Virus record (IMG/VR): IMGVR_UViG_3300043409_001877
Location: 64,001-128,000 of that record
Strand: one strand, 5' to 3'
DNA: 64,000 nt
From: a virus
Numbering within the stretch: the stretch's first letter is position 1; every line of letters begins with the position of its first letter. Shown piece after piece: positions 37,018 to 53,150 of the stretch. A program made the position numbers and the translations under genes. The notes under the pieces are model-generated. The model had not been told where the DNA came from. It was given only the letters and a program-made list of their open reading frames with translations, and did no database searches.

Positions 37018-37573
37018 TAAAGATAAAGCTAGTATAATAGCGCAAGGTATTGCAAATGCTAGAAAAGTAATGGAAAAAGTTGAGGGTGGTTTAGTTAAAT
37101 CGTCTAATAACACAGTTAGAGGTTTAAGTGAATCAGATGTTGATCGTATGTTAGACAATGACGCTGTAAATTATATGACAGAAAGAAAAGTCCAACAACC
37201 AACTGCGGCTTCAAACATGAGAAATTTACATAAATCAAAAATGCCTGCGGATATCTTGAAATCGTTTCAAGAAAACCCAATCATTGATCCAACAGCCCCA
37301 GTGGGTATGGAGAGTATAATGCAAGAAATAACAAAAAAAGCAGCTCCTATGGAAGAAGTTGTTAAAAAAGTTATAACAGAAACCCAACAAGCACCTCAAT
37401 TAGATGCTAAATTAATTGAATTTATAATTAAAAAAACAGTAGAGGAAACCTTGGAACAAGTTAGTAAAAGAACAGCTATCGATGAAACGATTCAAATAAA
37501 AATTGGTGATAAAACATTTGGTGGTAAATTAACTGTGTTAAAAGAAAATAAAATAAACGAAAATAAAAAGTAA
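37010..37573 (+). CDS. Hypothetical protein
   Basis: Coupled ORF; SKMPADILKSFQENPI and IKIGDKTFGG motifs. Confidence 0.65.
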   Translation: MDNKDKASIIAQGIANARKVMEKVEGGLVKSSNNTVRGLSESDVDRMLDNDAVNYMTERKVQQPTAASNMRNLHKSKMPADILKSFQENPIIDPTAPVGMESIMQEITKKAAPMEEVVKKVITETQQAPQLDAKLIEFIIKKTVEETLEQVSKRTAIDETIQIKIGDKTFGGKLTVLKENKINENKK

Positions 37574-37577
37574 AATT

Positions 37578-37742
37578 ATGACAAAAGAAAAAGTATTAGG
37601 AATTGTAAGACACGTATTAACATTTGTTGGTGGTGTGTTAGTGGCAAAAGGTTTAGCTACAGACGTTATGTCTAATGAATTAATTGGTGCAGCCATGACA
37701 TTAGTTGGTGGCGTGTGGTCAATCATATCAAAAAATAAATAA
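37578..37742 (+). CDS. 54-aa two-TM membrane protein, holin-like (below ORF-track cutoff)
   Basis: MTKEKVLGIVRHVLTFVGGVLVAKGLATDVMSNELIGAAMTLVGGVWSIISKNK*: two hydrophobic helices, fills the gap between coupled genes. Confidence 0.75.
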   Translation: MTKEKVLGIVRHVLTFVGGVLVAKGLATDVMSNELIGAAMTLVGGVWSIISKNK

Positions 37743-37759
37743 TTAAAAAAATTAAACAA

Positions 37760-37948
37760 ATGAGTAATAACATAATTACATTTTGCAAACAAAAATGTTG
37801 CCCAGTAATTGAGATTCAAGGTAACGATATCATTTTAGGCGACAAAGAAGGGCCTGAAGGAATTACCACATGGAGTAAAAATCAATTTGCTGACTTTGTT
37901 GAGGCAGCTAAAGAAGGTAAATTTGATCAAATTATCAAACAAAATTAA
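37760..37948 (+). CDS. DUF397-like small protein
   Basis: CC.VIEI....IILGDK..P.....WS..QFADFV.AAKEGKF resembles the DUF397 layout. Confidence 0.55.
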   Translation: MSNNIITFCKQKCCPVIEIQGNDIILGDKEGPEGITTWSKNQFADFVEAAKEGKFDQIIKQN

Positions 37949-37968
37949 AAATAATAAATTAACTAATT

Positions 37969-38000
37969 AACGGTAATTATAACTAATTGCCGTTTTTTTT
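37969..38000 (+). terminator. Intrinsic terminator
   Basis: AACGGTAATTA-TAAC-TAATTGCCGTT followed by a T run. Confidence 0.85.
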
Positions 38001-38025
38001 GTTCCTATTTTTTTAGGATTTGCAC

Positions 38026-38056
38026 TTGTTTTTTTGATATAATTTTACTATTATTG
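38026..38056 (+). promoter_or_regulatory. Host-type promoter TTG-N20-TATTATTG for the glycan/nucleotide operon
   Basis: TTG 38026-28 and TATTATTG 38049-56, between a terminator and ATG 38076. Confidence 0.6.
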
Positions 38057-38075
38057 GGTAAAACATATACATATA

Positions 38076-39302
38076 ATGTCAAAAATTAAAATATTAGTAG
38101 CACCAGGTGATAGAGCTGGTTCAGGTAAATTTAGATGTGTAGATCCCCATGTCAATTTACAAAATAACTTTTCTAGCGATTATTTCGTTGATATTAATCA
38201 CAATATTGATTTCAGTGACGTTAATTACCTTAAAAATTATGACGTTGTGTTTATTCATAGAATACCACAACATAGAAATAAAGAAGCCGTTGATATTATT
38301 AACAGAATTAAAAAGTTAGGTATTAAGGTTATTGTTGATACAGATGATCATTGGAATTTAGACCCATCTCATGGCTTGTATGCTATGGCTAAAAGAGATA
38401 ATATACCTGGAACTATATTAGATTGTATTAAATTAGCTGATTTGGTTACCGTACCAACAGAAATTATTGCAAAAGAAGTTTCAAAATTCAATAAAAATGT
38501 TGTAGTTTTGCCAAACGCTATTGATCCAAATGAAGAACAATTTAAACCAAAACCGATTAAGTCAGATTTGATTAGATTTGGGTGGTTAGGTGGTTCATCA
38601 CATGTTAAAGATATTGAATTACTACGTGGAATTGGCTCTACTCAAAAATCTATCAGTGAAAAATCTCAGATAGTTTTATGTGGGTTTGATACTAGAGGAA
38701 CCGTACAATCGATCAATCCAAATACTAATCAGGTAGAACAAAGACCAATGAATCCACAAGAAACAACTTGGTTTATGTATGAATTATTTTTAACAAATAA
38801 CTATAAAAATTTGGAGCATGATAAAGATTATTTAACTTATTTGGTTAGCTTTGCCGATGACCCATCTTATGATTCAACAAATAAACCATATAGAAGAATT
38901 TGGACTAAAGCTATTAATCAATACGCTAATGGTTATAATAGTTTTGATGTGGCTTTGGCACCATTAAATGATAGTGATTTTAATAAGTACAAATCTCAAT
39001 TAAAAGTAATTGAGGCTGGGTTTCATAAGAAGGCTTTAATTGCTCAAAACTATGGCCCTTACACCATTGATTTGATTAACGCTATTAATAAAGGTGGTGA
39101 ATCTAACCCAGATGGTAATTGTTTATTAGTTGATACAGCTAAGAACCATAAACAATGGACTAAGTACGCTAAAAAATTAGCTGATAGCCCACAAATGGTT
39201 ATTGATTTAGGTGAAAAATTATATGAAACCGTTAAAGATAAATATGATTTAAATAATGTAACAAAATTAAGAAGTGAAATTTATAAAAATTTAGTAAAAT
39301 GA
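38076..39302 (+). CDS. Glycosyltransferase (GT-B / GT4-like)
   Basis: DTDDHW, VLPNAID, GWLGGSSH..D, DVALAPL...FN.YKSQLKVIEAG. Confidence 0.85.
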   Translation: MSKIKILVAPGDRAGSGKFRCVDPHVNLQNNFSSDYFVDINHNIDFSDVNYLKNYDVVFIHRIPQHRNKEAVDIINRIKKLGIKVIVDTDDHWNLDPSHGLYAMAKRDNIPGTILDCIKLADLVTVPTEIIAKEVSKFNKNVVVLPNAIDPNEEQFKPKPIKSDLIRFGWLGGSSHVKDIELLRGIGSTQKSISEKSQIVLCGFDTRGTVQSINPNTNQVEQRPMNPQETTWFMYELFLTNNYKNLEHDKDYLTYLVSFADDPSYDSTNKPYRRIWTKAINQYANGYNSFDVALAPLNDSDFNKYKSQLKVIEAGFHKKALIAQNYGPYTIDLINAINKGGESNPDGNCLLVDTAKNHKQWTKYAKKLADSPQMVIDLGEKLYETVKDKYDLNNVTKLRSEIYKNLVK

Positions 39303-39883
39303 TAACAATAGAAACAATCCAAGAAAACAAAAAAAAGTTTTTAACCACGGTAAAAGGTTATAACATTTGTACCAATGAGTTAATTGATAAATTATCTGAT
39401 ATGGGTCTTTTTGACGCACCAGCATCTACAATGCTTAGTTTACACAATGCATTCCCAGGTGGTTTAATTGATCACTCACTTCGTGTTACTGGTTACGCTC
39501 TTAAATTAAATGAGTTGTTACCAGACCATCTTAAACAAACTAAAGAGAGCGTTATTCGTGTTAGTTTATTGCACTCAATTGGTAAAGTTGGTTTATACAC
39601 ACCATGTAAAAGTGATTGGCATATTAAGAACCAAGGTAAGATGTATGAATTTAACGAATCGTTAACATCTATGTCTATTGGTGAGAGGAGTTTATTTTAC
39701 ATTATGTCAAATAACAACGGTAATATGATTACGGATATTGAATATCAAGCCATTACTAATTACGACAAAACAGCTTCAGATAAAATGTCTGAATGGCACA
39801 CATCTTCATTAGGTGAAATTTTAAAAATGGCTATTAAATTAGCTATAATGGAAGAAAAAACAAAATATACGACAAATGGATAA
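39299..39883 (+). CDS. HD-domain-like hydrolase (HD motif reads HS)
   Basis: APAS...HNAFPGGLIDHSLRV...LLHSIGK. Confidence 0.7.
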   Translation: MITIETIQENKKKFLTTVKGYNICTNELIDKLSDMGLFDAPASTMLSLHNAFPGGLIDHSLRVTGYALKLNELLPDHLKQTKESVIRVSLLHSIGKVGLYTPCKSDWHIKNQGKMYEFNESLTSMSIGERSLFYIMSNNNGNMITDIEYQAITNYDKTASDKMSEWHTSSLGEILKMAIKLAIMEEKTKYTTNG

Positions 39884-40463
39884 TTTAGATAAACTAAACA
39901 ATTTAAATGTTTACGATTACTTAACCGATGAAGAAAAAATTCAAATGGCTGAAGTATTAGATCAAATTGGTGGTATGAATGATTGGGTTTTTGACTCCAC
40001 AGATAATTCAATGAAACTTAAAATATCTATGGTTAATAATTCAAATAACCCTGATCCAATGTATCAAAAAATTGGTGATAGTGGTTTTGATTTTATGGCT
40101 AGTCTACCAGAAGGTGCTATTATTATAGCAGAACCTCTTAAAAGAGTGTTGATTCCAACTGGGCTACATTTTCAAATACCTATTGGGTTCGAATTACAAG
40201 TTAGACCTAGAAGTGGTTTAGCGTTAAAAAATGGTATCACAGTTTTAAATACACCTGGTACTGTTGATTCTGGGTATCGTGGTGAAATTAAAGTTATATT
40301 ATATAATACAGGTGATGAATCTTTTACAATAAAAAATGGTGATAGAATTGCGCAAGGGGTTATAGCACCAGTTCAAAACAAAAAAACAACCATATTTACA
40401 CGTGTTGAATCATTAGATGATTCTGATAGAGGTGTTGATGGGTTTGGATCAACTGGAGTATGA
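39876..40463 (+). CDS. dut: Trimeric dUTPase
   Basis: SGFD, IPTG, RPRSGLA, GTVDSGYRGEI, GDRIAQ, RGVDGFGSTG. Confidence 0.95.
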   Translation: MDNLDKLNNLNVYDYLTDEEKIQMAEVLDQIGGMNDWVFDSTDNSMKLKISMVNNSNNPDPMYQKIGDSGFDFMASLPEGAIIIAEPLKRVLIPTGLHFQIPIGFELQVRPRSGLALKNGITVLNTPGTVDSGYRGEIKVILYNTGDESFTIKNGDRIAQGVIAPVQNKKTTIFTRVESLDDSDRGVDGFGSTGV

Positions 40464-40744
40464 TAAAAGATTATTTCAAAATACAAATTGAGTCCTATCC
40501 TAGATTAACGGATGAGGTATTGGATCGTGTTGATTTTAAAACAGTATGGTCTGGTAAAAGAATGGTGTCAGGTGATAGGGTTTTATACGCTTTAGTATAT
40601 GTACCAAACACTGATGATTTGAAAGCAATTACCTTCTTAGAACGTGAATTAGATGAAATCAGTTCTAGATTTAATTTTGTAAGTTTTGAAAATGAAGGCT
40701 TACCTATATTATCATTTATAGAAGACGTTAAAAAAAGAAATTAA
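40460..40744 (+). CDS. Hypothetical protein
   Basis: Overlap-coupled 94-aa ORF. Confidence 0.6.
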   Translation: MIKDYFKIQIESYPRLTDEVLDRVDFKTVWSGKRMVSGDRVLYALVYVPNTDDLKAITFLERELDEISSRFNFVSFENEGLPILSFIEDVKKRN

Positions 40745-41490
40745 TGGGATCTGAATTAAATAAAATATTTGAAGAAATTTATTATATTAATTTAAAAAGT
40801 CGACCAGATAAATTAAAATTTATAGAAGACCAATTAAATAAAAATAATATTATTGCAACTAAGTTTGAGGCTGTTAATGCAAATGACGTTAAAAGATTTC
40901 ATGGTAAAAAGTATGAGTTAAATAAATCTAATTACGGTAAAGTGGGTTGTATGGAATCGCATAGAACAATATGGCTTGATTGTTTAAAACGTAACGTTAG
41001 CTCTGTTCTTATACTTGAAGATGATGTGCAATTTGTTGACAATTTCAATCAATTAATGAAAGAAAAATTAAAAACACTACCAAAAAATTGGAACTTCTTG
41101 GCTCTAGGTTATAATAGAAATAAATCATTTTTATATAAAAAAAATTTAATTAAATATAGAATGATAAACAATGATTGGGAAACTTTTGATGGTATAAGTG
41201 GTTCTGGGGCTTGGGGTTTAAAAAACAACATGATATCAAAATTATTAAGCGCAACTGATGATAATATTAAAGGTGAAAATTTTGATTTATTTTTAACCCA
41301 AAGTAAATTTTTTGAAGAAATAGATTTAATATTATACTCAACAATAGATCAACTTATAATACAAAAAACAATTGGGTTTAGTGATGTAAATAAATCAAAT
41401 AAAGTAAATGATGATGAAGTGAATGAAGTAAATCATAATAATGTAAAGTCACTTAATAATATGCTTTTAAAAGATTTTCAAACAGAATAA
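40744..41490 (+). CDS. Glycosyltransferase family 25
   Basis: YYINL..RPD, FEAV, GCMESHR..W, LILEDD, LP.NW.FL.LG. Confidence 0.85.
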   Translation: MGSELNKIFEEIYYINLKSRPDKLKFIEDQLNKNNIIATKFEAVNANDVKRFHGKKYELNKSNYGKVGCMESHRTIWLDCLKRNVSSVLILEDDVQFVDNFNQLMKEKLKTLPKNWNFLALGYNRNKSFLYKKNLIKYRMINNDWETFDGISGSGAWGLKNNMISKLLSATDDNIKGENFDLFLTQSKFFEEIDLILYSTIDQLIIQKTIGFSDVNKSNKVNDDEVNEVNHNNVKSLNNMLLKDFQTE

Positions 41491-41495
41491 AAAAT

Positions 41496-42176
41496 ATGGA
41501 TAGTAACGATATAAATATAACAGTTGTATATTCAACAAGAAAAATAGACTCTGATTATTTTGAACATGTTAAATCAACATGTGCGTCACCTAGTATGGAA
41601 ATATTAGCATATGAAAATAATGGTGAAAAATCTTTAACGGAAATATATAATGACGCTCTATCTGTTGCTAAACATGATATTATTGTTTTTTGTCATGATG
41701 ATTTAATTTTTGAAACAAAATATTGGGGTAAGAAAATATTTAAACATTTTAAAAGAAACCCAGAATATGGTATTATAGGTTTGGCTGGGACTAACAACTT
41801 AATTAGCGGTCAATGGTGGGCTATTAGAGAATCAATGCATGGTATAGTTAATCATAGCGATGGTATAAAAAAATGGACTAGCATGTTTTCAAAACCACAA
41901 GGTAATTTAATTAAAGAAATGATTGTGTTAGATGGGGTGTTTTTTGCTGTTGATCGAACAAAAATAAAACATTCTTTTGATGAAGATTTTAAAGGATTTC
42001 ACTTTTATGATCTATCATTTTGTTTCCCAAATCATTTAGATGGTGTTAAAATTGGTGTGATTACCGATCTTCTAATAACCCACATGTCTGTTGGTCACAC
42101 AAATCAATATTGGGAGGAAAATAAAAAATTATTTGAAGATAAATACAAAAACAATTTACCAATTAAATTAAAGTGA
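41496..42176 (+). CDS. GT-A / GT2-like glycosyltransferase
   Basis: SL.EIYN, VFCHDD, GIIGLAG, LDGVFFA, FDE..GFHFYD. Confidence 0.8.
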   Translation: MDSNDINITVVYSTRKIDSDYFEHVKSTCASPSMEILAYENNGEKSLTEIYNDALSVAKHDIIVFCHDDLIFETKYWGKKIFKHFKRNPEYGIIGLAGTNNLISGQWWAIRESMHGIVNHSDGIKKWTSMFSKPQGNLIKEMIVLDGVFFAVDRTKIKHSFDEDFKGFHFYDLSFCFPNHLDGVKIGVITDLLITHMSVGHTNQYWEENKKLFEDKYKNNLPIKLK

Positions 42177-42835
42177 AACTTATAACAGAATTAAAAGATA
42201 AACATAAAGGTGAGGATATATATGTAATCGCATCTGGGAAATCAATTGACTTTATTGATGATAGCTTTTTTGATGGTAAAATATTAATTGGTGTTAATCA
42301 AGCGTATAAAAAAATTTGGTGTGATTATTTAGTTAGAAAAGAAACAAAGTTTTTAAAACAAAGTATAGAAGAGGATTCAATCATTATTGTATCAGAATAT
42401 GATAGCGGAAATTTAAATTCAGGTAGTGGTAAACTAAACACTAATAAAATTGAACATGATAATTTATATTATTTTGAACATCTAGATAATGGTCACACTC
42501 AAATAGACACATCTGTATTTGGTACGGATAAAATAGTGGTTAGCTTCTCAACTATAACATCAGCTATTCATATCGCAGCTTACATGGGAGCTAAGAACAT
42601 TATCTTAGTTGGTCATGATTGTGGTACTATAAATAGTGAAATGACATTTAAAGGGTATTACAATAGCATAAAAGACACTCCATGGCAAGAGTGGAAACAA
42701 TATAAAGCTTGGTTAAAAGCTATTGAATCACAAACTGTCATAGTAAAAAATCAAATTAAAAAACATTACAATGCTAATGTAATTTCAATAAATCCTTTTG
42801 TATCATTAAATCTTGAAAATAATATCTATCAATGA
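42173..42835 (+). CDS. Maf/DUF115-like (nonulosonate transferase-like) protein
   Basis: LKDKHKGEDIYVIASGKS, IGVN, STITSAIHIAAYMGAKNIILVGHD. Confidence 0.7.
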   Translation: MKLITELKDKHKGEDIYVIASGKSIDFIDDSFFDGKILIGVNQAYKKIWCDYLVRKETKFLKQSIEEDSIIIVSEYDSGNLNSGSGKLNTNKIEHDNLYYFEHLDNGHTQIDTSVFGTDKIVVSFSTITSAIHIAAYMGAKNIILVGHDCGTINSEMTFKGYYNSIKDTPWQEWKQYKAWLKAIESQTVIVKNQIKKHYNANVISINPFVSLNLENNIYQ

Positions 42836-43464
42836 TAAAATATGTTATACCAGCCAGACGTAATTCAAAAGGATTACCATTTAAGAATAGAAAATTATTT
42901 GACTATACAATTAAAAGTATACCATACGAATTTTTAAATTCAGTCATTGTAACTACTGATGATGAGGTTATTATTGATAAATGTAAGTCGCTTGGTATAA
43001 ATTACGTTTCCAGAGATCCGTTATTAGCTTTAGATGAGACATCAACAAAAGATGTTATTATTGATTTAATAAATAGAGGTTTATTAATTAATGACGATAT
43101 ATGTGTTATGTTATATTTAACATACCCAGAAAGGACTTGGGATGATATCTCAAAAGCTATATTATTTATGGAGGATAAAGAGGGTAAAAGTTTATTATGT
43201 AAAAAAACCATAAAAAGTACACACCCATATTTATATATGTTTGAAGGTAAAAATTATACTGGTACTCAGTTAATTGAACATAATCTTTACAGAAGACAAG
43301 ATTACCCAAGAGTTTTTGAAATATCACATTTTATTAGTATATTTGAAATCCCTGAAGTATTTAATTTAAATGGTAATTTATATAATAAAAAAACCATCTA
43401 TTATCCTATAGGGGATGTTACAGATGTTGATACTAACGAAGATTTGAAAACTATAATATTTTAA
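42832..43464 (+). CDS. neuA: CMP-nonulosonic acid synthetase (cytidylyltransferase)
   Basis: IPARRNSKGLPFKN, VTTDD, LA.DE, RRQD, DVDT.ED. Confidence 0.85.
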   Translation: MIKYVIPARRNSKGLPFKNRKLFDYTIKSIPYEFLNSVIVTTDDEVIIDKCKSLGINYVSRDPLLALDETSTKDVIIDLINRGLLINDDICVMLYLTYPERTWDDISKAILFMEDKEGKSLLCKKTIKSTHPYLYMFEGKNYTGTQLIEHNLYRRQDYPRVFEISHFISIFEIPEVFNLNGNLYNKKTIYYPIGDVTDVDTNEDLKTIIF

Positions 43465-45359
43465 TGGGAGTTTTTATAAGAAATAAAAGTAAAAGAGTTA
43501 TTGGTGTTGATAAACCTAAGAAAATGGTTATTGATAATGAGGTAAGGGTTGAGGGTGCTATTGAAACTGTACTACCTGGTAAAAAGAGTTTAAAAAGTAA
43601 AATTGGTGAATCATCAAAACCAGCACCTATTTTACTTAGTTCTTTGGTTAAAAATGTTGAACCAACACCACCTCCAATTGTTAAAAAAACAGTAACTAAT
43701 TCTTTTGATAAAGGTGTTAAACCAGATGTAAGGGTGTTTACAAATAAAAATAATGATAGACCTAAAGAAGAAAAAAATATTATACCGCAAATTAACCCTA
43801 GTTTTGAGTTAAAAAGCGATTCATTACCAAATAAATACGCTTTAACAACAATATTAAATGATTCTTTTGCTGAATATTTTTATGTGTTTGTCACATCATT
43901 TTTAGAAAATAATAGATGGTTTAAAGGTGATATTATTATTATGTATAATGATGATTTTTCTTTTTTATCTGATAGTAGTATTAATAAAATATCAAAATTA
44001 TACCATAATATTGTATTTAGAAAAATAGAAACCACTAAAGATTATTTGTATGTTATAGATGAATTTAAAAAACGTGTAAACCCAGCATTTCATAGATTTA
44101 CAGCATCAATTCTAACTATAGAAACTTTTAATATTACAGGGTATGATAAAATATTATATTTAGATGCTGATACGCTAGTTATTAATAATATTAAAGAACT
44201 TTTTTTAGCTAAATCAGATATTGTTGTAACTAATGACACTTCCGATTATATAACCACCAATCAAATAAAATTAGCCAATGATTCAAATAGCCAATTAAAA
44301 TTAAACGGTGGATTTCTTTTAGTTGATAAAAAATTTATTGAAAAAAGTGACCATGTTATGAACATTTTTTCAGAATTTAATAAAATACCTGATATTACAT
44401 TTTTAGATCAAAGTATACTTAATTATTATCTTAAAAGATACGATGTTTTGTTTATAAACGCTAATTATAATTTATTAAAAAGATGTTTTAATGATTCTAA
44501 TAAAGAATTATTAAAAAAATACGCTACAGATATAAAGATAATACATTATGTTGGTGAAAAGCCGTGGCAAGTAAAACAAAAAGATTTTGAAAAAAACTAC
44601 ACTGAAATTGAAAAATTCTGGTTAAATTGTTATAATAAATGTAATGGGGTTATAGGTGTTTCACATCAAGAGTTAAATGTTATATCGTCTGGAATTAAAT
44701 TAGACGAACTTAGAGAGATTCTACCAGAAGTTAAAACTGGTAAAAATATGTCAGCTAATTGGGGTTATAAATTTAGTAATGTTTGTGATATAGATTTTTA
44801 CTTATGCTCCACAAATGAAGCTAAATTATTTGAAGAAATTAACAATGATTTATTTAAACCAAAAGTTAATTGGTTATTAACCACAAACGTATACAACAAT
44901 TTTAAAAAAATAAGAGGGTCTATTCCAAATAACATAGATCCGTTTTATTTTATAATGGATAGATCTGAGATTTTTAAACAAATGTTATATAATCGGTTAA
45001 ATAATAAAAATTTAAACATGCCAACATCAGGTGTTGTTATGTTATTTTTATCATCATTCATGGATGTTAAAAAAATTAATATTATTGGTTACAATTTATT
45101 TAACGTTAAAAACAATGACGGATCATTTAAACAATTTGGTAATAGTAAATTTATTAACCCATATGTTGATGATAAAAAACCACACTCAATTGAATGTGAT
45201 ATAACTTATATTATTTTATCTTTAAATAACCTAATAAAAAATAACGCAGAAATTAAATTTTATCAATCCGAAATTGTTAATGATGTTTATAACATGATTT
45301 TAGATGAGCTTGGTACTAACCAAATAATTAACGAAATAAAAAATAAATACAAGTATTAA
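43464..45359 (+). CDS. Fusion of a GT8 glycosyltransferase and a CstII/GT42-like sialyltransferase domain
   Basis: GT8: YLDADTLV, NGGF, DQSILN, YN, IIHYVGEKPW. C-terminal: PTSGVVM...IIGYN.F...HS..D. Confidence 0.7.
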   Translation: MGVFIRNKSKRVIGVDKPKKMVIDNEVRVEGAIETVLPGKKSLKSKIGESSKPAPILLSSLVKNVEPTPPPIVKKTVTNSFDKGVKPDVRVFTNKNNDRPKEEKNIIPQINPSFELKSDSLPNKYALTTILNDSFAEYFYVFVTSFLENNRWFKGDIIIMYNDDFSFLSDSSINKISKLYHNIVFRKIETTKDYLYVIDEFKKRVNPAFHRFTASILTIETFNITGYDKILYLDADTLVINNIKELFLAKSDIVVTNDTSDYITTNQIKLANDSNSQLKLNGGFLLVDKKFIEKSDHVMNIFSEFNKIPDITFLDQSILNYYLKRYDVLFINANYNLLKRCFNDSNKELLKKYATDIKIIHYVGEKPWQVKQKDFEKNYTEIEKFWLNCYNKCNGVIGVSHQELNVISSGIKLDELREILPEVKTGKNMSANWGYKFSNVCDIDFYLCSTNEAKLFEEINNDLFKPKVNWLLTTNVYNNFKKIRGSIPNNIDPFYFIMDRSEIFKQMLYNRLNNKNLNMPTSGVVMLFLSSFMDVKKINIIGYNLFNVKNNDGSFKQFGNSKFINPYVDDKKPHSIECDITYIILSLNNLIKNNAEIKFYQSEIVNDVYNMILDELGTNQIINEIKNKYKY

Positions 45360-45361
45360 AA

Positions 45362-46207
45362 ATGGGTAAAGTAAAAATTATTGCCGAAATAGGTATAAAT
45401 CACAATGGTGATATTAACATCGCAAAAGAATTAATAATGGTTGCAAAAGCCGCTGGTTGTGATTACGTTAAATTCCAAAAAAGAAATCCAGATGTGTGTG
45501 TACCAGAAGACCAAAAATTAAAAATTAGACAGACACCTTGGGGTGAAATGACTTACATTGATTATAAATGGAAGACCGAGTTTTCTAAAGAGCAATATTT
45601 AGAAATCGACAGATTCTGTTATGAATTAGGGATTAATTGGTTTGTATCAGTTTGGGATATAGATTCAGTTGATTTTATGAGAGAGATATCAAAAGAAACT
45701 AAAATGTATGATGGTACAATGAAAATACCATCAGCGTTAATTACTGATTTAAAGTTATGTGAATACGCTATGGTAAATTCTAATACATTTATCATATCAA
45801 CTGGTATGAGTACCGAAGAAGAGATTAGACAATGTGTTACCGCATGTACTCCAGATGTTATTATGCACACAAACTCAACTTATCCATGTCCTGTTGATGA
45901 ATTAAATTTAAACTATATTAATTGGCTTAAAGGATGGTACCCAGATAAAGAAATTGGTTATAGTGGTCATGAGTACGGTCTTGTAACAACTTTTGCTACA
46001 ATTCCTATGGGTGTCACTTGGATTGAACGACACATTACATTAGACAGAGGTATGTGGGGGTCTGATCAAGCATCATCAATTGAACCATCTGGTTTATTTA
46101 AATTAGTTAAAGGTATTCGTGATATAGAAAAAGCCCTATCACTACCAGTGGCACCAAGAGTGGTATTTGGTAAAGAATTAGAAAAACAAAAATCATTAAG
46201 AAAATAA
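45362..46207 (+). CDS. neuB: N-acetylneuraminate/nonulosonate synthase family (short form, no SAF domain)
   Basis: IIAEIGINHNGD, VKFQKR, KIPS, ISTGMS, HTNSTYP, GYSGHE, IERHITLDR...GSDQ. Confidence 0.93.
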   Translation: MGKVKIIAEIGINHNGDINIAKELIMVAKAAGCDYVKFQKRNPDVCVPEDQKLKIRQTPWGEMTYIDYKWKTEFSKEQYLEIDRFCYELGINWFVSVWDIDSVDFMREISKETKMYDGTMKIPSALITDLKLCEYAMVNSNTFIISTGMSTEEEIRQCVTACTPDVIMHTNSTYPCPVDELNLNYINWLKGWYPDKEIGYSGHEYGLVTTFATIPMGVTWIERHITLDRGMWGSDQASSIEPSGLFKLVKGIRDIEKALSLPVAPRVVFGKELEKQKSLRK

Positions 46208-46208
46208 G

Positions 46209-46901
46209 ATGAACATATTTAAAACAAATTATAAAGGGGTTTTAGTAGAATTACCAAAATCAATTCACGAACAAAGAACAGTGTCTAAGGTTGAAACCAT
46301 TAAAGACAGAATATTGATGGGTGACTACGAAAGAGTTGAAAGCGATTTTGCTATTAAGTATTACGATAATAATGACGTTGTTTTAGAGTTAGGTGGTTGT
46401 TTAGGTATTGTGTCATGTATAATGGCTAAAATTGTTAAAAATTTAGTAACTGTCGAACCAAACACTAATTTAAATGATATTATTAACAATCATAAAAAAA
46501 TAAACAACGTTGATTTTATATTAGAAAACACAATTGTTAGTAATAACAACACTGATATTGTAGAATTTCATGTGAACCCTTTTGTTTTAGGTTCTGGTTT
46601 ATATTCTAAAAGTAGTAATATTATTAAAACAAAAACAACAACTATTAGCGATCTTGAGAAAAAACATAATTTAAAATTCAATACACTCCATTGCGATATT
46701 GAGGGTTTTGAGTTTGATTTCTTAAAGAATAATATAAATGAAATAAAAACAAAATTTAATAAGATTATAATTGAAACTCATTACTGGATGAACCTTGCTA
46801 ATGGGTATGATGTTTTAGCGTTTTTAAACGGTAATGGTTATGAATTAATTAATCAACATCAAGGAATATTTTTTTTAAAACTAAAACATAATAATGGATA
46901 A
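46209..46901 (+). CDS. FkbM-family methyltransferase
   Basis: VLELGGCLG, VEPN, CDIEGFE, IIIETH. Confidence 0.85.
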   Translation: MNIFKTNYKGVLVELPKSIHEQRTVSKVETIKDRILMGDYERVESDFAIKYYDNNDVVLELGGCLGIVSCIMAKIVKNLVTVEPNTNLNDIINNHKKINNVDFILENTIVSNNNTDIVEFHVNPFVLGSGLYSKSSNIIKTKTTTISDLEKKHNLKFNTLHCDIEGFEFDFLKNNINEIKTKFNKIIIETHYWMNLANGYDVLAFLNGNGYELINQHQGIFFLKLKHNNG

Positions 46902-48810
46902 ACATAAAGACTTTTGGGAAAAATGTGATGAAACGTTTTCACATATTGATATATCTGGTCACTTAGGGGATATTAAACAATTACAACAATCATGGGAAAA
47001 TAATTTTGCTAATAAATATGATTTTACCAATAAAACTGTAATTGATTATGGTATTGGCGGTGGGTTATTTGGTAAATACCTTTTTGATAAAAAGAAAATA
47101 AAAAAGTATATTGGATTTGATATAGCACAAAGACAACTTAAACATGCCGCTATAAATTTAAAAGGTTATAAAAAAGAACTTTTTGATTCTAATGTAAAAT
47201 TAAATTTTAACGATTTAAATGCTGATATTTTTATTTGCCAAGCTGTTATACAACACTTCCCTAATGAAAAGTATATGATTAATTTTTTAAATGAACTTAA
47301 CGATTCTAATATTAACGAAATAATGTTACAAATACGTTATAGCAATAAAACAACGTTTAGTAATGATTATGATACAAGAGAAGGCGTTAGATTATCCTGT
47401 CAAACCAATTCAGATTATATATTAAAACATTTAAAAAACTATAAACTAGTAACTAATAAAAAATTAACCAACAAATCAAATTACGAATTTTTATTCTTTG
47501 AAAAAAAAAATAAAAAAATTTACGTAGACATTGATAACACGATTGCTGAAACCAATGGTATGGATTATGAAAATTCAAAACCAATAATGGATAGGATTAA
47601 TAAAATTAACAACCTTCATGATGATGGTAATACCATTGTTTACTGGACGGCAAGAGGTTCTGTATCTGGTATTGATTATTCAGAATTAACTAAAAAACAA
47701 TTTGAAGAATGGGGTGTTAAATATCACGATTTAAAATTTGGTAAACCAGCTTATGATTTATTTATTGATGATAAAAATATACATAGTGATACATTTTTTA
47801 AATCGGTTGATACAATTAATCACGATTCTAATTTATTTATAACATGCCCTTCGGTTAAAGTACCACATGGTGGTATTAGAGTCATATTAGAATGGGCTAA
47901 TAGATTAAGTAAATGGCATAACGTAACTTTATATATTGCAGATGGTGAAACTAACTGTAAATGGTTTGAAATAGATCCTATTGTAAAAATAGAGATTAAT
48001 AAAAATAACATTGTTGATTATAATTGCGTAATTATTACAAGCCCACATTCAATACACCTGCAAGATCTAATAACATCAAATCAAAAGTGTTTTATTTTTA
48101 TGCAAATGGCTGAACATTTATTCAACCCTAATGATACTGAATGGCTTAAAAAATGCACAGATTTTTACACATCAAAACACCCTTTGTTTTCAATATCTCA
48201 ATGGAATATTGATATGTTGAAAAATGAATTTAAACGTAGTGGTGAAATTTATTATATTGGGAATGGTGTTAATTTAGATGATTTTACTATAAGTGAAACT
48301 CCTAAAAAAGATAATATTATATTAATTGAAGGTTGGGAGCCAACTAACCCAAGTAAAGATATAGATAATTTAGCTCCAAGAGTAGCAGCTAAACTTAAAA
48401 AAATGAAATATAAAATTTTAGCATATTCTAATAGACCATTAAAAACTTTTGCTGAAATACCTGATGAATACTATCATAACCCTGATTTAAAAACAATGAA
48501 TGATTTATATGATAGAGCCACAATATTAGTTAAGGCTACTAAATACGATGCCAGAAGTTGTGCACCAATGGAGGCTATGACTAAAGGTACACCAACTGTT
48601 AGAGCTATAAATTATGGTGACGATGATTTAATTAATGATTTTAATTGCGTTAAAGTACTTTATAATGAACGACAATTATATGAGGGTATTATTAATTTAT
48701 TAAAAGATAAAGATAAATATGAATACATGTCTTCACATTGTTTAAATTATGTTAAAACGATTACTTGGGATTTTTGGATGGGTGAAGTTAATAAAATAAT
48801 AAGCAATTAA
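46894..48810 (+). CDS. Triple fusion: SAM methyltransferase + capsule-type HAD phosphatase + GT4-like glycosyltransferase
   Basis: VIDYGIGGG..GFDI..VIQHFP; YVDIDNTI..YWTARG..GKP.YDLFIDDK; PHGGIRV..GNGV..PMEAM..GTP. Confidence 0.75.
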   Translation: MDKHKDFWEKCDETFSHIDISGHLGDIKQLQQSWENNFANKYDFTNKTVIDYGIGGGLFGKYLFDKKKIKKYIGFDIAQRQLKHAAINLKGYKKELFDSNVKLNFNDLNADIFICQAVIQHFPNEKYMINFLNELNDSNINEIMLQIRYSNKTTFSNDYDTREGVRLSCQTNSDYILKHLKNYKLVTNKKLTNKSNYEFLFFEKKNKKIYVDIDNTIAETNGMDYENSKPIMDRINKINNLHDDGNTIVYWTARGSVSGIDYSELTKKQFEEWGVKYHDLKFGKPAYDLFIDDKNIHSDTFFKSVDTINHDSNLFITCPSVKVPHGGIRVILEWANRLSKWHNVTLYIADGETNCKWFEIDPIVKIEINKNNIVDYNCVIITSPHSIHLQDLITSNQKCFIFMQMAEHLFNPNDTEWLKKCTDFYTSKHPLFSISQWNIDMLKNEFKRSGEIYYIGNGVNLDDFTISETPKKDNIILIEGWEPTNPSKDIDNLAPRVAAKLKKMKYKILAYSNRPLKTFAEIPDEYYHNPDLKTMNDLYDRATILVKATKYDARSCAPMEAMTKGTPTVRAINYGDDDLINDFNCVKVLYNERQLYEGIINLLKDKDKYEYMSSHCLNYVKTITWDFWMGEVNKIISN

Positions 48811-48839
48811 TAATAAATTTAAAAAAAAATAATAAGCAA

Positions 48840-49508
48840 ATGTTAAATAGCAAAGAAATTAATAAAATAAAAGAAGATGTTTGTATTATTGCGTTAAAAT
48901 ATCTTGAACCATATTGGGAGCTAACCCAATTAGATATAATAAATTCTGGTTTATCAGTTATTTACGTTGATAGAGAAGGTGTTGGTTCTATGAGTAAAGC
49001 CTTCAACACATGTATACCGCAATTAATAGAAAAATACGGTGATAATTTACCCAAGTATTTATTTTTTGTTACAAATGTTGGCTTTAATATAAATACAGTT
49101 AATAGATTAGTTGAATCTATGGATAAAACAGGTTTTGGCGCTATTCACCCATCCCATGAAAGTGATCATGCGTCTCACAGAAATAATGGTACAAATGAAA
49201 TTGTAGAAACAAAATATATAGAATGGACAGCTCCAATTGTAAAGACTGAGCTTTTTTTAAAGCAAAAATTAGATGAAAATTATAGATATTGGTATTTTGA
49301 TTTAGTATGGAGTTATGACGTTAAACAAATGGGCTATAAAATAGGTGTTGATCATGGAACTTCGGTTAATCACACATATTTATTAAAGGAGAACAAAAAA
49401 CATATAATAACAAAATTAAGAAGTGAATTAAGATGGTATTGGAATCCAATTGAGGAAAAAACATTAATCTCAAAATACGGATTAAATTGGAAAAAACTAC
49501 TTTGGTAG
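48840..49508 (+). CDS. Divergent GT-A-like protein
   Basis: SKAFN, LDE.Y.YW..D..W, IGVD....V.H; sits within the glycan operon. Confidence 0.5.
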   Translation: MLNSKEINKIKEDVCIIALKYLEPYWELTQLDIINSGLSVIYVDREGVGSMSKAFNTCIPQLIEKYGDNLPKYLFFVTNVGFNINTVNRLVESMDKTGFGAIHPSHESDHASHRNNGTNEIVETKYIEWTAPIVKTELFLKQKLDENYRYWYFDLVWSYDVKQMGYKIGVDHGTSVNHTYLLKENKKHIITKLRSELRWYWNPIEEKTLISKYGLNWKKLLW

Positions 49509-49539
49509 AAAAATAAGAATAAAAAATAAGAATAAAAAA

Positions 49540-50181
49540 ATGACAACATTAGAATTACATGGAGTGGCATACGAATTAGCTTTTTGGAAAGAATTCGTTA
49601 AAACAGATCGTTTTATCACTGGGTGGGTTGGTAAAGAAAAAACCCCAGAATTAAATAATAAAGTAGCTGAATTTATATTAGCAAATAAAAACGATAATAT
49701 ACTAGATGTTGGTAGCGGTGCTGTATCATTATTAAACGGATTATCAAATAAATCAAATTTAATTGCAGCTGATCCGTTGGGTGAGCTATATCAGATAGTT
49801 TTTGATTATAAAAAATATAACATACCAGCTCCATTAACATATCCAGCGGAAGAACTTCCGTATGATAATGAATTTGATATTGTCCACATATCAAACGCAC
49901 TAGACCACAGCCAAGACCCAAAATTAGCTGTTGAAAAATTATTAAAATCAACTAAAAGTGGTGGATATTTAATCATTCAAGGGTTTGAATGCGAAGGTAC
50001 GTTTGAAAACTGGATTGGATTTCATCAATGGGATTTACAATATAAACCACATGGTTTAACATTAACTAATAAACATGGTGAAGAAACTATATTATTAGAT
50101 AGTACCGATATTACTATTGGAAGTAGTGATGATATTGGTGGTGGCAAAAGATGGTTAATATGCGTAGTAAAGAAGAAGTAA
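49540..50181 (+). CDS. Class I SAM methyltransferase
   Basis: ILDVGSG, AEELPY..EFDIV..NALDH, K.GGYL. Confidence 0.85.
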   Translation: MTTLELHGVAYELAFWKEFVKTDRFITGWVGKEKTPELNNKVAEFILANKNDNILDVGSGAVSLLNGLSNKSNLIAADPLGELYQIVFDYKKYNIPAPLTYPAEELPYDNEFDIVHISNALDHSQDPKLAVEKLLKSTKSGGYLIIQGFECEGTFENWIGFHQWDLQYKPHGLTLTNKHGEETILLDSTDITIGSSDDIGGGKRWLICVVKKK

Positions 50182-50612
50182 CTAAAATTATAATAGACTT
50201 TGACGGTGTACTAACCGATGGTAAAATTTTTTACACACACGATGGTAAACAATTTAAAGGTACAAATACTCGTGATGTTAGGGCTATAAGAGAATTAATT
50301 AGCCATGGTTACGATGTTACGATTTTAACAGCAAGTAATTGGTCTGGCTCTAAAGATTTTGCAAAAAAAACTGGGGCTGATGTAGTTATTTTAAAAGAAA
50401 AGATAAAATTTTTAGAAACATTTAATGGTGGTTATATAGCAATAGGTGATGATGTTTGGGATCACCCATTAATTGAATCTGCCAGTAGATTTTTTGCACC
50501 AAGAGATTGTGATAAGTTAATAAAAAACAATCCTAAAGTTGAAATATTAGATTGTGATGGTGGTAGTGGCGTAATAGCTGAGCTAGTTTGGTTATTATGT
50601 AATAATAAATAA
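50151..50612 (+). CDS. kdsC: KdsC-family HAD phosphatase (KDO-8-P/KDN-9-P phosphatase-like)
   Basis: IDFDGVLTDG, RD, IGDD..D, GG.GVIAE. Confidence 0.8.
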   Translation: MVNMRSKEEVTKIIIDFDGVLTDGKIFYTHDGKQFKGTNTRDVRAIRELISHGYDVTILTASNWSGSKDFAKKTGADVVILKEKIKFLETFNGGYIAIGDDVWDHPLIESASRFFAPRDCDKLIKNNPKVEILDCDGGSGVIAELVWLLCNNK

Positions 50613-50627
50613 ATGTAAATATATACT

Positions 50628-51374
50628 ATGGGTAACCAAAGAAGAAAGAAAAGACTAACCTCTGAAGAAGAATTTGAGGTTTTAAATGAAATTAACCACT
50701 CACATAGTGGTAACATTTTAGATAGAATAAAAGTTGATATCAAGTATAAAACACAGAACCAAAAAATTTTAGTAAACGAGATTAAGGATAAAGAGATTGT
50801 AATATGCTCTGGTTTACCTGGAACTGGTAAAACATTCTTATCATGCGCTGTGGCATTAGAGTTGCTTAAAAAAGACCCTAGGTACCGTAAAATCGTAATA
50901 GTTAAATCTGTTACAACATTAAGGGATGAAGAAATTGGATTCTTAAAAGGAACCATGAAAGAAAAGATGGAACCATTTATGTATTCTTTCTTACATAACT
51001 TTGAAAAAATAATTGGTAAAAGTAATGTTGAAGCTTTAAGAGCCGCTGGTATGATCGAAGAAATGCCAATAGCCTATATGAGGGGTATTAACATAGATAA
51101 CTCAATTACAATCATAGATGAGGCTCAAAATATCTCAATTGATAATATCAGGACAATTATGACTCGTTTAGGCGAAAACTCTAAAATGATATTCTTAGGG
51201 GATGAAAATCAGATTGACATGAAAAAGAAAGGCGAAAGCTCTCTTAATTTTATTATTAATAAATTCAAGAATTTTGATGAAGTTGGGACTATTAGTTTGG
51301 GTGAAGATGATGTCGTAAGAAACCCTTTAATAAAGAAAATTGAGCAAATTTTTAGAGAAAATTCAAATCAATAA
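50628..51374 (+). CDS. phoH: PhoH-family ATPase
   Basis: GLPGTGKT, IGFLKG, AYMRG, IDEAQN, TRLGENSK, GD..QID, DVVRNPLI. Confidence 0.93.
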   Translation: MGNQRRKKRLTSEEEFEVLNEINHSHSGNILDRIKVDIKYKTQNQKILVNEIKDKEIVICSGLPGTGKTFLSCAVALELLKKDPRYRKIVIVKSVTTLRDEEIGFLKGTMKEKMEPFMYSFLHNFEKIIGKSNVEALRAAGMIEEMPIAYMRGINIDNSITIIDEAQNISIDNIRTIMTRLGENSKMIFLGDENQIDMKKKGESSLNFIINKFKNFDEVGTISLGEDDVVRNPLIKKIEQIFRENSNQ

Positions 51375-51420
51375 TTTACTTTTTCTATTTTAACCATATT
51401 ATTGTTTAAAAGACAGTAAT

Positions 51421-52068
51421 ATGGTTATTGGAATTACAATTAATAATATCCTTAGGGATCACATCACACAATTAAAAAAGGTTTATTATACCGTCACAGA
51501 TGAGACGGCTATAGAACCTATAAACCCTTTTGATTTAGAGACTTCATTTCCAAACAAACAGTCAACTGAAATTGTTCAAGAATTTAAAGTTACTGATGAT
51601 ACTTTTTCAGAAGAATTAACATTAAACGAATTAGATGAAACTTTTAATGTATATGAATTTATATATAAAGAAGCTTCGTTTGAAATATTTGGTCGTTCAG
51701 AAGAATCTATTGACGGTTTAATCCGCATGTTAAAAGAGTGGGAGAAAAAATGGAAAGTTAAATTTGTTTTATTAAATAAAGAATCCCCAAGATCAAAATG
51801 TGCCACTCTATTTTTCTTATCTAAAAATGGATTTGATTTAGATACCATTTATTTCCCAACAAAAGATAAAGATTTTTGGAATAATGTTGAGGTTTTAATT
51901 ACAGATAACCCTAAAATATTAAAGTGCAAACCAAAAGATAAAACATCAATCAAGATAATTAATGATTTTAATCTTGATATAAAATCAGATTTTAGTATTA
52001 TTAGATTAGATAATAACACAAAAGAAATTAAGAATATAATAAAAACCATAAAAGAAAAAATTAAATAA
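51421..52068 (+). CDS. Degenerate HAD / 5'(3')-nucleotidase-like protein
   Basis: IGITINNILRD sits at the position of IGIDIDGVLRD; LITDNP near the C-terminus. Confidence 0.5.
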   Translation: MVIGITINNILRDHITQLKKVYYTVTDETAIEPINPFDLETSFPNKQSTEIVQEFKVTDDTFSEELTLNELDETFNVYEFIYKEASFEIFGRSEESIDGLIRMLKEWEKKWKVKFVLLNKESPRSKCATLFFLSKNGFDLDTIYFPTKDKDFWNNVEVLITDNPKILKCKPKDKTSIKIINDFNLDIKSDFSIIRLDNNTKEIKNIIKTIKEKIK

Positions 52069-52073
52069 AAAAA

Positions 52074-53150
52074 ATGGAAAAATTAGATGAAACGTTAAAA
52101 AACATTGATTTAGCGATTGAAAAAATTAAAAACAAAGAAAGCAAAATTGTTTTCTTATCACCAGACACAAAAGGAACTGCTAGAGCTAGTGTTGCTTACA
52201 TTTACAGACAAGCGTTAACTTTGAAAAATAATGGCTACCACGTTAGTATTTTACATGAGAAAAATGACTACATGAAACCAGGTTCTTGGTTAGGTGAAGA
52301 GTATGATGCTTTAGAGCATAGCTCAATTGAAGATAATAATTTAACTGTTGGGCCTCAGGACTACATTGTTGTCCCTGAAATTTTTGGTAATGTTTTTGAA
52401 CAAATCCAACAATTACCAATTGATAAAATTATTTTAGTACAATGTCACGATTATCTTTTAGATAGCTTCTCACCAGGTAAGTCTTGGTTAGATTTTGATG
52501 TTAACGAATGTGTTACAACATCAAAAACTTTAAGTGATATGATTGGAGAATTAGTTGGTATTGAAGGTGTTAAATTTGTTAATCCAGGTGTTCCTGAGTT
52601 CTTTAATAAATCAGACAAACCTCAAATGCCGATTGTGTCTATTCATTGTAGAGACCAAAGAAAAGCTGCTAAGATTATTAAAACCTTCTATTTGAAATAT
52701 CCGTTATATCGTTTTATTTCATTTAAAGATATGCATAGTATGGGCGAAAAAGACTTTGCTAAAAATTTAAAAGAATGTGCATTATCTGTTTGGATTGACG
52801 ATGATAGTTCATTTGGTACATTCCCGATTGAGTCTATTAAATCTAATGTCCCAGTAATTGGTAAAGTGCCTAATATCATCCCTGAATGGATGAATGACGA
52901 TAATGGTATTTGGGTTTATGATGAGAATCAAATCCCTGATTTAGTTTTTAATTACATTAAAAATTGGATGGAAGATTCTTTACCTGATAACTTGTTAAAA
53001 GTTGCTGACACATTAAAAGATAAGTATACTATCGAAATTTTTGAAAAAGCAACGGTTGAAATGTATAATGATTTATTTGAAAAGAAATTAACCAAATTAA
53101 ATACAATAAAAGAAAACTTAGAAAAAACTTTAGAAAAAAATGAAAACTAA
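52074..53150 (+). CDS. GT4-like glycosyltransferase
   Basis: IVVPE, SSFGTFPIESIK..VPVIG. Confidence 0.7.
   Translation: MEKLDETLKNIDLAIEKIKNKESKIVFLSPDTKGTARASVAYIYRQALTLKNNGYHVSILHEKNDYMKPGSWLGEEYDALEHSSIEDNNLTVGPQDYIVVPEIFGNVFEQIQQLPIDKIILVQCHDYLLDSFSPGKSWLDFDVNECVTTSKTLSDMIGELVGIEGVKFVNPGVPEFFNKSDKPQMPIVSIHCRDQRKAAKIIKTFYLKYPLYRFISFKDMHSMGEKDFAKNLKECALSVWIDDDSSFGTFPIESIKSNVPVIGKVPNIIPEWMNDDNGIWVYDENQIPDLVFNYIKNWMEDSLPDNLLKVADTLKDKYTIEIFEKATVEMYNDLFEKKLTKLNTIKENLEKTLEKNEN

Follow-up and report, generated by a model that had tools for sequence, protein, structure and literature searches.

A phage gene island with a predicted nonulosonic acid pathway consists of two separately inherited cassettes

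The stretch of DNA analysed here, called the window in the following, comprises 64,000 nucleotides of the virus record IMGVR_UViG_3300043409_001877 (record length 141,494 bp, record GC 30%; window at bases 64001-128000) and carries a plus-strand island of glycosyltransferase, methyltransferase and sugar acid genes. The best explanation for this island, to which we assign a probability of about 0.6, is that one part (cassette A) makes, activates and transfers a nonulosonic acid and that the other part (cassette B) is an independent set of glycan-building genes. Nonulosonic acids are known as sugars on the surface of animals, bacteria and some algae. A sequence-only reading had proposed a phage-encoded gene set for synthesis (NeuB), activation to the cytidine monophosphate (CMP) sugar and transfer, with further glycosyltransferases and methyltransferases, in one tightly coupled run. 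All domains named there were recovered in Pfam, PHROG, NCBIfam and structure searches, and they support a set of this kind. Substrates, product and target are what we infer from the genes, domains, catalytic residues, clade and linkage described below.

Two cassettes and the pathway phosphatase

The region 42173-50612 is filled by nine plus-strand open reading frames (ORFs), all of them intact, with overlaps of 1-31 bp and gaps of at most 32 bp. Genes and the domains of the one fusion ORF that spans both cassettes are as follows (aa, amino acids; values are E values unless stated otherwise).

42173..42835, plus strand: cassette A, MptE/DUF115-like protein of 220 aa with sialyltransferase-type fold (PF01973, 7.6e-7, below the Pfam cut-off; PHROG 4603 'alpha-2,3-sialyltransferase', 8.5e-8)
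42832..43464, plus strand: cassette A, predicted CMP-nonulosonate synthetase, a NeuA/PseF-like cytidylyltransferase (CTP_transf_3, PF02348, 9.2e-6)
43464..45359, plus strand: cassette A, fusion of an N-terminal part, a GT8 domain (PF01501, 2.9e-16) and a C-terminal domain of sialyltransferase/MptE fold
45362..46207, plus strand: cassette A, predicted NeuB-family nonulosonate(-9-phosphate) synthase of 281 aa without SAF domain (PF03102, 6.6e-57)
46209..46901, plus strand: FkbM-family methyltransferase (TIGR01444, 2e-16, above the cut-off; PF05050)
46894-48810, plus strand: fusion protein of 638 aa with methyltransferase, HAD and GT1/GT4 domains in one ORF
46894..47490, plus strand: class I methyltransferase, N-terminus of the 638-aa fusion (Methyltransf_11 at residues 51-125)
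47500..47810, plus strand: small HAD phosphatase domain, residues ~205-305 of the 638-aa fusion (PHROG 1238, 2.1e-27)
47821..48810, plus strand: cassette B, GT1/GT4 (GT-B) domain, C-terminus of the 638-aa fusion (PF00534, 5.5e-5)
48840..49508, plus strand: cassette B, GT-A-like glycosyltransferase of 222 aa (Atlas features only, 0.97-0.99)
49540..50181, plus strand: cassette B, class I S-adenosylmethionine (SAM) methyltransferase (Methyltransf_23, 3.2e-9)
50151..50612, plus strand: cassette B, KdsC-like HAD phosphatase (TIGR01670, 1.5e-17, below the cut-off)

Pfam searches at E ≤ 1 returned nothing for the 222-aa protein or for either end of the GT8 fusion. The Atlas matches of the 222-aa protein, which are based on language-model features, are viral clusters of the GT2/Glyco_tranf_2_5 type.

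The island is composed of two separately inherited cassettes, A reaching from 42173 to about 47810 and B from about 47821 to 50612. Both occupy a variable site bordered by the conserved GT2-like gene (41496-42176) and phoH, and the GT2-like gene is syntenic in relatives with cassette A, with cassette B or with both. Cassette A alone is found in loci of the L003 type and cassette B alone in L199-L206, while the source phage and the fragments L002 and L198 show both. In the source phage the 638-aa ORF joins the last domain of cassette A (HAD) to the first domain of cassette B (GT4), a junction which is also seen in the independent contig L198. Residues 1-204 of this fusion correspond to stand-alone genes in L005, L009, L010, L019 and L020. 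The methyltransferase-HAD junction is the sole junction without confirmation in an independent contig: L002 ends at fusion residue 192 and L198 begins at residue 193, both derive from metagenome 3300009419, and both share 92-97% protein identity with the source phage. This common breakpoint points either to variation between strains or to a faulty assembly where methyltransferase and HAD meet.

For the linkage analysis, 80 viral NeuB loci were searched by tblastn with the island proteins, and 80 KdsC loci were fetched out of 185 viral contigs found with the KdsC-like protein. The small HAD is present in 72 of the 80 NeuB loci, usually as a stand-alone gene for 96-108 aa; its distance from NeuB is at most 100 bp in 35 loci and at most 1 kb in 49. 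The CMP-synthetase was found in 53/80 and the MptE-like protein in 24/80. None of the NeuB loci gave a tblastn match to the KdsC-like protein, the methyltransferase encoded at 49540 or the 222-aa GT-A protein. The KdsC-like gene is accompanied by the GT-A protein (56/80), the methyltransferase (47/80) and the GT4 domain (fusion residues 313-638; 47/80), and NeuB occurs in two of the 80 KdsC loci, at 35% identity. Since cassette B is nearly always without NeuB in other phages, NeuB does not have its conserved partner in the KdsC-like gene, and the part of the sequence-only reading that derived the logic of a KDN (2-keto-3-deoxynononic acid) route from a KdsC-type phosphatase is not supported. 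As a dedicated pathway phosphatase the KdsC-like protein was rejected on the same counts. It shows the motifs DFDGVLTDG and GDD(xxD) and scores 64 bits with TIGR01670 (cut-off 106.95) and 47.7 bits with the KDN-9-phosphatase equivalog NF058599 (cut-off 180).

The conserved partner of NeuB appears to be the small HAD, which we regard, from linkage and motifs, as the candidate nonulosonate-9-phosphate phosphatase. HAD motifs I-IV are present (DIDNT, T, K, DD), and PDB entry 9iqw is matched at 1.1e-13. The protein belongs to PHROG 1238 and not to the NCBIfam subfamily TIGR01689 (EcbF/BcbF), with which it scores 32 bits where 162 are needed.

Elsewhere, cassette B is accompanied by Stealth-like, sulfotransferase, RgpF and WbsX genes. 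In L214 a KdsC-like domain is fused to a sulfotransferase (9377-10420), followed by a Stealth-like (hexose-1-phosphate transferase) gene (10421-11152). This company hints at a sulfated or phosphodiester-linked glycan as the product of cassette B.

Synthase, synthetase and candidate transferases

The NeuB protein is matched by PF03102 with 193 bits (cut-off 22.1) over 236 of 241 positions, and it aligns solely to positions 2-259 of the 329-position NeuB model, which shows that a SAF domain is lacking. It was rejected as an equivalog of NeuB/LegI or PseI, as its scores with TIGR03569 (NeuB_NnaB; 189.4, cut-off 399.65) and TIGR03586 (PseI; 138.9, cut-off 340.25) are less than half of the cut-offs and it falls into a separate clade. 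Residues were mapped onto Neisseria meningitidis NeuB (1XUZ), and invariance was judged over 21 viral homologues. Each of E25, K53, Q55, K129, S132, Y186, S213, H215, E234, H236 and D247 is matched, with invariance in almost every case. The metal ligands H215 and H236, the catalytic E25 and E234 and the K53 and K129 that bind phosphoenolpyruvate (PEP) correspond to H203, H224, E9, E222, K37 and K121 of the phage protein, which are invariant in 21/21 homologues. The sequence-only reading had allowed for a NeuB without catalytic residues; metal-binding, catalytic and PEP-binding residues are all conserved, and the phage NeuB looks functional from this pattern. Because the entire SAF-less clade shows the same architecture and the same loss of E134, the absence of the SAF domain and of this residue is a trait of the clade and not decay. 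SAF-less NeuBs are on record as an unexplained 'environmental' group (PMC8208679).

A NeuB phylogeny, as suggested by the sequence-only reading, was calculated from 69 sequences (quick IQ-TREE, LG+G4, SH-aLRT support only), with references labelled by their NCBIfam equivalog scores. All SAF-less sequences separate with an SH-aLRT of 100 from the NeuB/LegI and PseI equivalogs. Within them, the phage NeuBs and those of nine contigs binned into metagenome-assembled genomes (MAGs) form one clade (SH-aLRT 99), whose sister group consists of short NeuBs of cellular organisms (Hymenobacter, Flectobacillus, Bacteroidales, Chloroflexota, Streptomyces and others). Phage and cellular short NeuBs have in common the motifs KFQKR..P..C.P, TPWG, GYSGHE and WGSD and a C-terminal LRK tail, which the long forms are without. 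Animal NANS presumably shares motifs of the KFQK, GYSGHE and WGSD type, which we take as a lead only. The beta2-alpha2 loop (residues 37-75, KFQKR.P..C.P..Q...R.TPWG..Y..YK) is strongly conserved between the phage and cellular short forms and unlike that of long NeuB and PseI. In these SAF-less NeuBs the loop is basic and a possible site of sugar phosphate binding.

Short SAF-less NeuBs were found in about 39 of 121 sampled Bacteroidota genomes. In the cellular sister loci a KdsC-family phosphatase gene lies immediately upstream of the short NeuB in 44/80, and the best NCBIfam match of this phosphatase in sampled cases is the KDN-9-phosphatase, with 161-169 bits at a cut-off of 180. In Bacteroidota and other bacteria, as in L146:5319-8831, L099:5079-8849 and L098:5168-8828, genes for a HemL-like class III aminotransferase, a weakly PtmA-like SDR oxidoreductase and a KdsC/KDN-9-phosphatase-like protein precede the short NeuB in a conserved run, and the gene content of such a run suggests an aminated nonulosonate made via a 9-phosphate. 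Fusion proteins also occur in cellular organisms, namely in Streptomyces (L143:6111-8843) and Chloroflexia (L096:6699-7934): a 910-aa chain combines a cytidylyltransferase with a short NeuB, and a 411-aa chain combines a cytidylyltransferase with a KdsC-like phosphatase.

The cytidylyltransferase of cassette A matches the PseF model at 1.1e-11, below the cut-off, and its best PDB matches are the CMP-N-acetylneuraminic acid (Neu5Ac) synthetases 6ifd (1.5e-12) and 1eyr. For the 220-aa protein an AlphaFold2 model was obtained with a pLDDT of 80 and a pTM of 0.84. Foldseek matched this model to CstII (E 1.8e-4, TM score 0.50), Cst-I, the MptE HPPK, a Pasteurella multocida sialyltransferase and Maf (5mu5). 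The GT8 fusion contains the GT8 domain at residues 130-369 and a C-terminal domain of 257 aa at residues 375-631. The C-terminal domain (model pLDDT 80) is matched in Foldseek to the MptE HPPK, ST6GALNAC2 (1.1e-3), CstII and Cst-I, with E values of 1e-3 to 7e-3 and TM scores of 0.39-0.51, and among the Atlas structures to MptE/Maf/WaaZ clusters, including DUF115, with TM scores of 0.57-0.61. A sialyltransferase fold is supported by the models of both proteins, which are predicted to act as transferases. As a profile comparison gave no similarity between the C-terminus of the fusion and the family of the 220-aa protein, the two are not recent paralogues.

Phosphorylated route, product and acceptor

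In the route that we propose, the SAF-less NeuB would condense PEP with a hexose-6-phosphate of the host, most likely mannose-6-phosphate (Man-6-P) to give KDN-9-phosphate (KDN-9-P), or alternatively N-acetylmannosamine-6-phosphate (ManNAc-6-P) to give Neu5Ac-9-phosphate. The 9-phosphate would be removed by the small HAD phosphatase, the cytidylyltransferase would form the CMP-sugar, and the two proteins of sialyltransferase fold (220-aa protein and C-terminal domain of the GT8 fusion) would transfer it to the acceptor. Extension and methylation of the glycan would fall to the GT8 domain and to the FkbM and class I methyltransferases. Cassette B, with its GT4, GT-A, methyltransferase and KdsC-like proteins, would serve as an independent glycan-building set which is free of NeuB in many phages; its KdsC-like enzyme may have a different sugar phosphate as substrate or provide a backup for the small HAD.

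The product is very probably some nonulosonate, and a route via the 9-phosphate is the probable one. A 9-phosphate intermediate is supported by the tight linkage of the small HAD to NeuB, by the occurrence of its family in sugar-nucleotide contexts, and by the KDN-9-phosphatase-like genes that adjoin NeuB in the cellular sister group. The HAD phosphatases found at the same place in phages and in cellular organisms are unrelated, which looks like non-orthologous replacement of one function. If NeuB instead used an unphosphorylated sugar, both HADs would serve other steps, such as the trimming of a transferred sugar phosphate or another sugar-nucleotide pathway. For this speaks the wide distribution of the small HAD family in phages without NeuB (390 cultured phage records), in cultured cyanophages next to genes for a heptose-pathway kinase and nucleotidyltransferase; the family is therefore not specific to nonulosonate pathways. 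Likewise, the best solved relative of the small HAD is annotated as 'capsule biosynthesis protein', and the KdsC-like gene elsewhere lies in a NeuB-free cassette with Stealth-like and sulfotransferase genes. Nevertheless, the short distances between HAD and NeuB counted above, and the fact that the cellular sister clade independently pairs its short NeuB with a HAD of the KdsC/KDN-9-phosphatase type, make an unphosphorylated substrate quite improbable.

With regard to the sugar itself, NeuC, DegT aminotransferase, PseB and SDR epimerase were searched for in the whole 141-kb record and none was found; by CheckV the record covers about 47% of the genome, which limits the scope of such absences. 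NeuC is also missing from five relatives with a completeness of 92% or more, among them the close relative IMGVR_UViG_3300042350_004528, a complete genome of 298,833 bp. The absence of NeuC and Pse/Leg genes that had been noted for the window thus extends to the rest of the record, and for NeuC to the complete close relative. Searches for Pse/Leg genes in this complete relative gave only weak or distant matches, including a weak DegT-like fragment inside its island. Man-6-P belongs to ordinary central metabolism and should be available in any host. Because of this supply, the lack of NeuC in near-complete relatives and the existence of two characterised synthases of the Man-6-P/KDN route (PMC6200933), the formation of KDN from Man-6-P is the most economical reading, and KDN is the leading candidate for the product, to be named tentatively. 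What remains of the KDN route put forward from sequence alone is the missing NeuC and the likely phosphorylated intermediate, while its KdsC-based argument is not supported. The Bacteroides thetaiotaomicron control genome matched the NeuB model at 1e-60 and not at 1e-78, in the band of the short clade, which is a bracketed score and not that of BT1714 itself. No KDN-9-phosphatase equivalog was found in the genomes around a MAG labelled Bacteroides (1 at genus level, 17 at family level).

Several observations weigh against this picture besides the limited completeness of the record and the wide distribution of the small HAD family. In the synthase, E134 and N184 are replaced (L126 and S172) and R314 is gone with the SAF domain, so that substrate binding must differ from that of the N. 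meningitidis enzyme. The tree was calculated without B. thetaiotaomicron BT1714, animal NANS and the Prymnesium enzyme. For the transferases the similarity in fold is moderate (TM scores 0.4-0.5), and archaeal HPPK and SteA have the same fold. The complete relative encodes an SDR epimerase/dehydratase 170 kb away from its island, and a NeuC-family epimerase lies within a few kb of the same type of NeuB in 7 of 50 related, more distant phage records. The island of L064 (4625-12813) unites an SDR epimerase/dehydratase, a methyltransferase, a GDSL enzyme, a NeuC-family epimerase, a small HAD, a short NeuB and a CMP-synthetase, and L064 further holds a second, divergent NeuB of 250 aa and another SDR. 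In view of these records the NeuB clade is not uniformly devoted to KDN, and the richer island of L064 indicates that phage nonulosonate cassettes are chemically diverse.

The same records favour an N-acylated product (a Neu5Ac-type or amino sugar acid) made from ManNAc or ManNAc-6-P, whether supplied by the host or by the phage. This would fit the CMP-Neu5Ac synthetases as closest solved relatives of the cytidylyltransferase and the aminotransferase and SDR enzyme of the cellular sister loci, and precursor genes could lie in the part of the genome outside the record. We consider it unlikely, given the joint absence of NeuC, DegT, PseB and SDR in 141 kb, the lack of NeuC in the complete 299-kb relative and four other near-complete ones, and the missing SAF domain, whose R314 has been reported to be essential for the activity of bacterial NeuB (PMC8208679).

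For the acceptor, none of the island proteins has a membrane-type hydrophobic segment, and Pfam, PHROG and NCBIfam scans of the island ORFs revealed no flippase, polymerase or lipid-carrier transferase. Since the island proteins look soluble and these functions are missing, the acceptor is probably cytoplasmic, most plausibly phage proteins; that virion proteins specifically carry a methylated KDN-type glycan seems possible, at rather less than even odds. A glycan on the host envelope (lipopolysaccharide (LPS) core, capsule or surface protein), masking receptors and excluding superinfecting phages, would suit the GT25 and GT8 proteins, as these are typical LPS-core enzyme families, and the structural neighbours of the fusion C-terminus, which include clusters with the WaaZ Kdo-transferase family in about a quarter of their members. 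Core sugars are moreover added at the cytoplasmic face, where soluble enzymes are enough. LPS-core synthesis at the inner face is thus a serious alternative to phage proteins. An envelope target nevertheless appears unlikely, as flippase, polymerase and lipid-carrier transferase are absent, there is no sign of a temperate phage, and the island stands in a long operon with replication genes. Its position between DNA polymerase, dUTPase and PhoH genes, with a dUTPase gene inside, could also point to the phage DNA, which would be hypermodified with the nonulosonate by soluble enzymes of sialyltransferase fold. We rate this as very improbable: a thymidylate-synthase-like hydroxymethylase was not found in the 141-kb record, a full-text search of the literature revealed no nonulosonate-modified phage DNA, and enzymes of the sialyltransferase and Maf folds have glycans and proteins as their known targets.

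Phage origin, spread and comparison with known systems

The sequence-only reading had placed the island at 42173-50612. The genes there are intact, and the island extends further upstream to its true start at 38076 (whole island 38076-50612, plus strand), by the following features.

37969..37994, plus strand: terminator-like hairpin with an 11-bp stem and a T run behind it, shortly before the island
38076..39302, plus strand: glycosyltransferase of the lineage backbone (phrog_7162, PHROG 7162, E 1.1e-42)
39876-40463: dUTPase/dCTP-deaminase-like gene between the glycosyltransferase gene at 38076 and the GT25 gene
40744..41490, plus strand: GT25-family glycosyltransferase (PF01755, E 9.8e-21)
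41496..42176, plus strand: GT2-like (GT-A) glycosyltransferase, the conserved left flank of the variable site (PF13712, E 3.3e-26)

The hairpin is the sole plus-strand terminator-like site in 37400-52200, with none inside the island, and is likely the 5' boundary of the transcription unit. A sigma-70 promoter scan gave 105 sites where 109 were expected and is uninformative in this AT-rich DNA. The backbone glycosyltransferase is kept in 25/80 NeuB loci and 10/80 KdsC loci. The dUTPase-like gene within the glycosyltransferase run has its position preserved in relatives.

The island is surrounded by genes for a tail sheath, helicase, B-family DNA polymerase, dUTPase and PhoH, the DNA polymerase sharing about 27% identity at most with any cultured phage. 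The source is an uncultured, myovirus-like phage lineage with an estimated genome size of about 300 kb. That the island might be bacterial DNA misassembled into a viral contig had been named as a possible objection, and several close NeuB relatives do sit on contigs that were assigned to MAGs of bacteria or archaea. These MAG-binned sequences nest inside the viral clade, however, and the flanks agree with the island in GC content (26-29% for the island stretch, 26-35% over the whole window) and in coding strand. The flanking order of glycosyltransferase, dUTPase, GT2-like gene, cassette and PhoH is shared by about 22 independent IMG/VR contigs, complete genomes among them, and ten further contigs show a related gene order with a different cassette. 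As identical flanks recur in about 22 independent assemblies, the island is phage DNA; a misassembly is contradicted by this synteny and was rejected, its chance being negligible. The contigs L082-L090, whose NeuBs fall inside the viral clade, come from MAGs of Planctomycetota, Magnetovibrio, Saprospiraceae, Thermoplasmatales, Woesearchaeota and others, and are probably phage contigs mis-binned into these MAGs.

NeuB relatives with 50-96% identity occur in at least 92 IMG/VR contigs, and the core of NeuB, HAD and CMP-synthetase likewise in at least 92. At E ≤ 1e-10, a metagenome protein search with NeuB gave at least 8000 scored candidates, of which the best 120 are all of the short type (242-299 aa). 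The PHROGs, which are built from sequenced phage genomes, contain no family matching the phage NeuB, only three GenBank phage records have a NeuB homologue, and a megablast of the island against GenBank phages gave no match. A targeted full-text search of the literature found no publication on nonulosonate synthesis or attachment by a phage.

The exchange of different cassettes at a single genomic site, as in O-antigen loci, may by analogy be a sign of a recognition arms race. If the product is confirmed, large aquatic phages devote about 5-12 kb to an acidic, methylated glycan of their own, the whole SAF-less NeuB clade, which is common in Bacteroidota, gains a function, and a compact enzyme set for CMP-sugar synthesis becomes available. 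A virion carrying a methylated KDN-type glycan would, as far as we found, be the first phage particle shown with a sugar of the sialic acid family.

The virions of mycobacteriophages are reportedly glycosylated by phage-encoded glycosyltransferases, which are said to use host nucleotide sugars and to make no nonulosonic acid (Freeman et al. 2023). The likeness lies in soluble glycosyltransferases of the phage's own that decorate a target inside the infected cell; the source phage is predicted to encode sugar synthesis and activation in addition. The sialyltransferases CstII and Cst-I (GT42), those of animal GT29 and the Maf transferases (DUF115/MptE-like), which place nonulosonates on flagellin, have a fold in common with both candidate transferases of the phage, at 13-17% sequence identity and TM scores of 0.4-0.5. 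Bacterial NeuB/LegI and PseI (1XUZ; Campylobacter jejuni PseI, 8H2C) share the TIM barrel, the metal-binding His and the catalytic Glu and Lys with the phage NeuB, which differs from them by the missing SAF domain with R314, by Leu and Ser in place of E134 and N184, by the distinct beta2-alpha2 loop and by its separate clade.

The closest known pathway is that for CMP-KDN, described from B. thetaiotaomicron, with the KDN-9-P synthase BT1714, the KDN-9-P phosphatase BT1713 and a CMP-KDN synthetase, and from Prymnesium parvum (PMC6200933). The phage is predicted to follow the same logic, in that a synthase of the NeuB family, a phosphatase of the HAD type and a cytidylyltransferase are encoded and the 141-kb record has no NeuC. 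In contrast to that pathway, the phage NeuBs form a clade of their own (SH-aLRT 99), and their conserved phosphatase is a HAD of about 100 aa (PHROG 1238) and not of the KdsC type. What this locus adds to the known systems is the two-cassette structure and the reassigned phosphatase.

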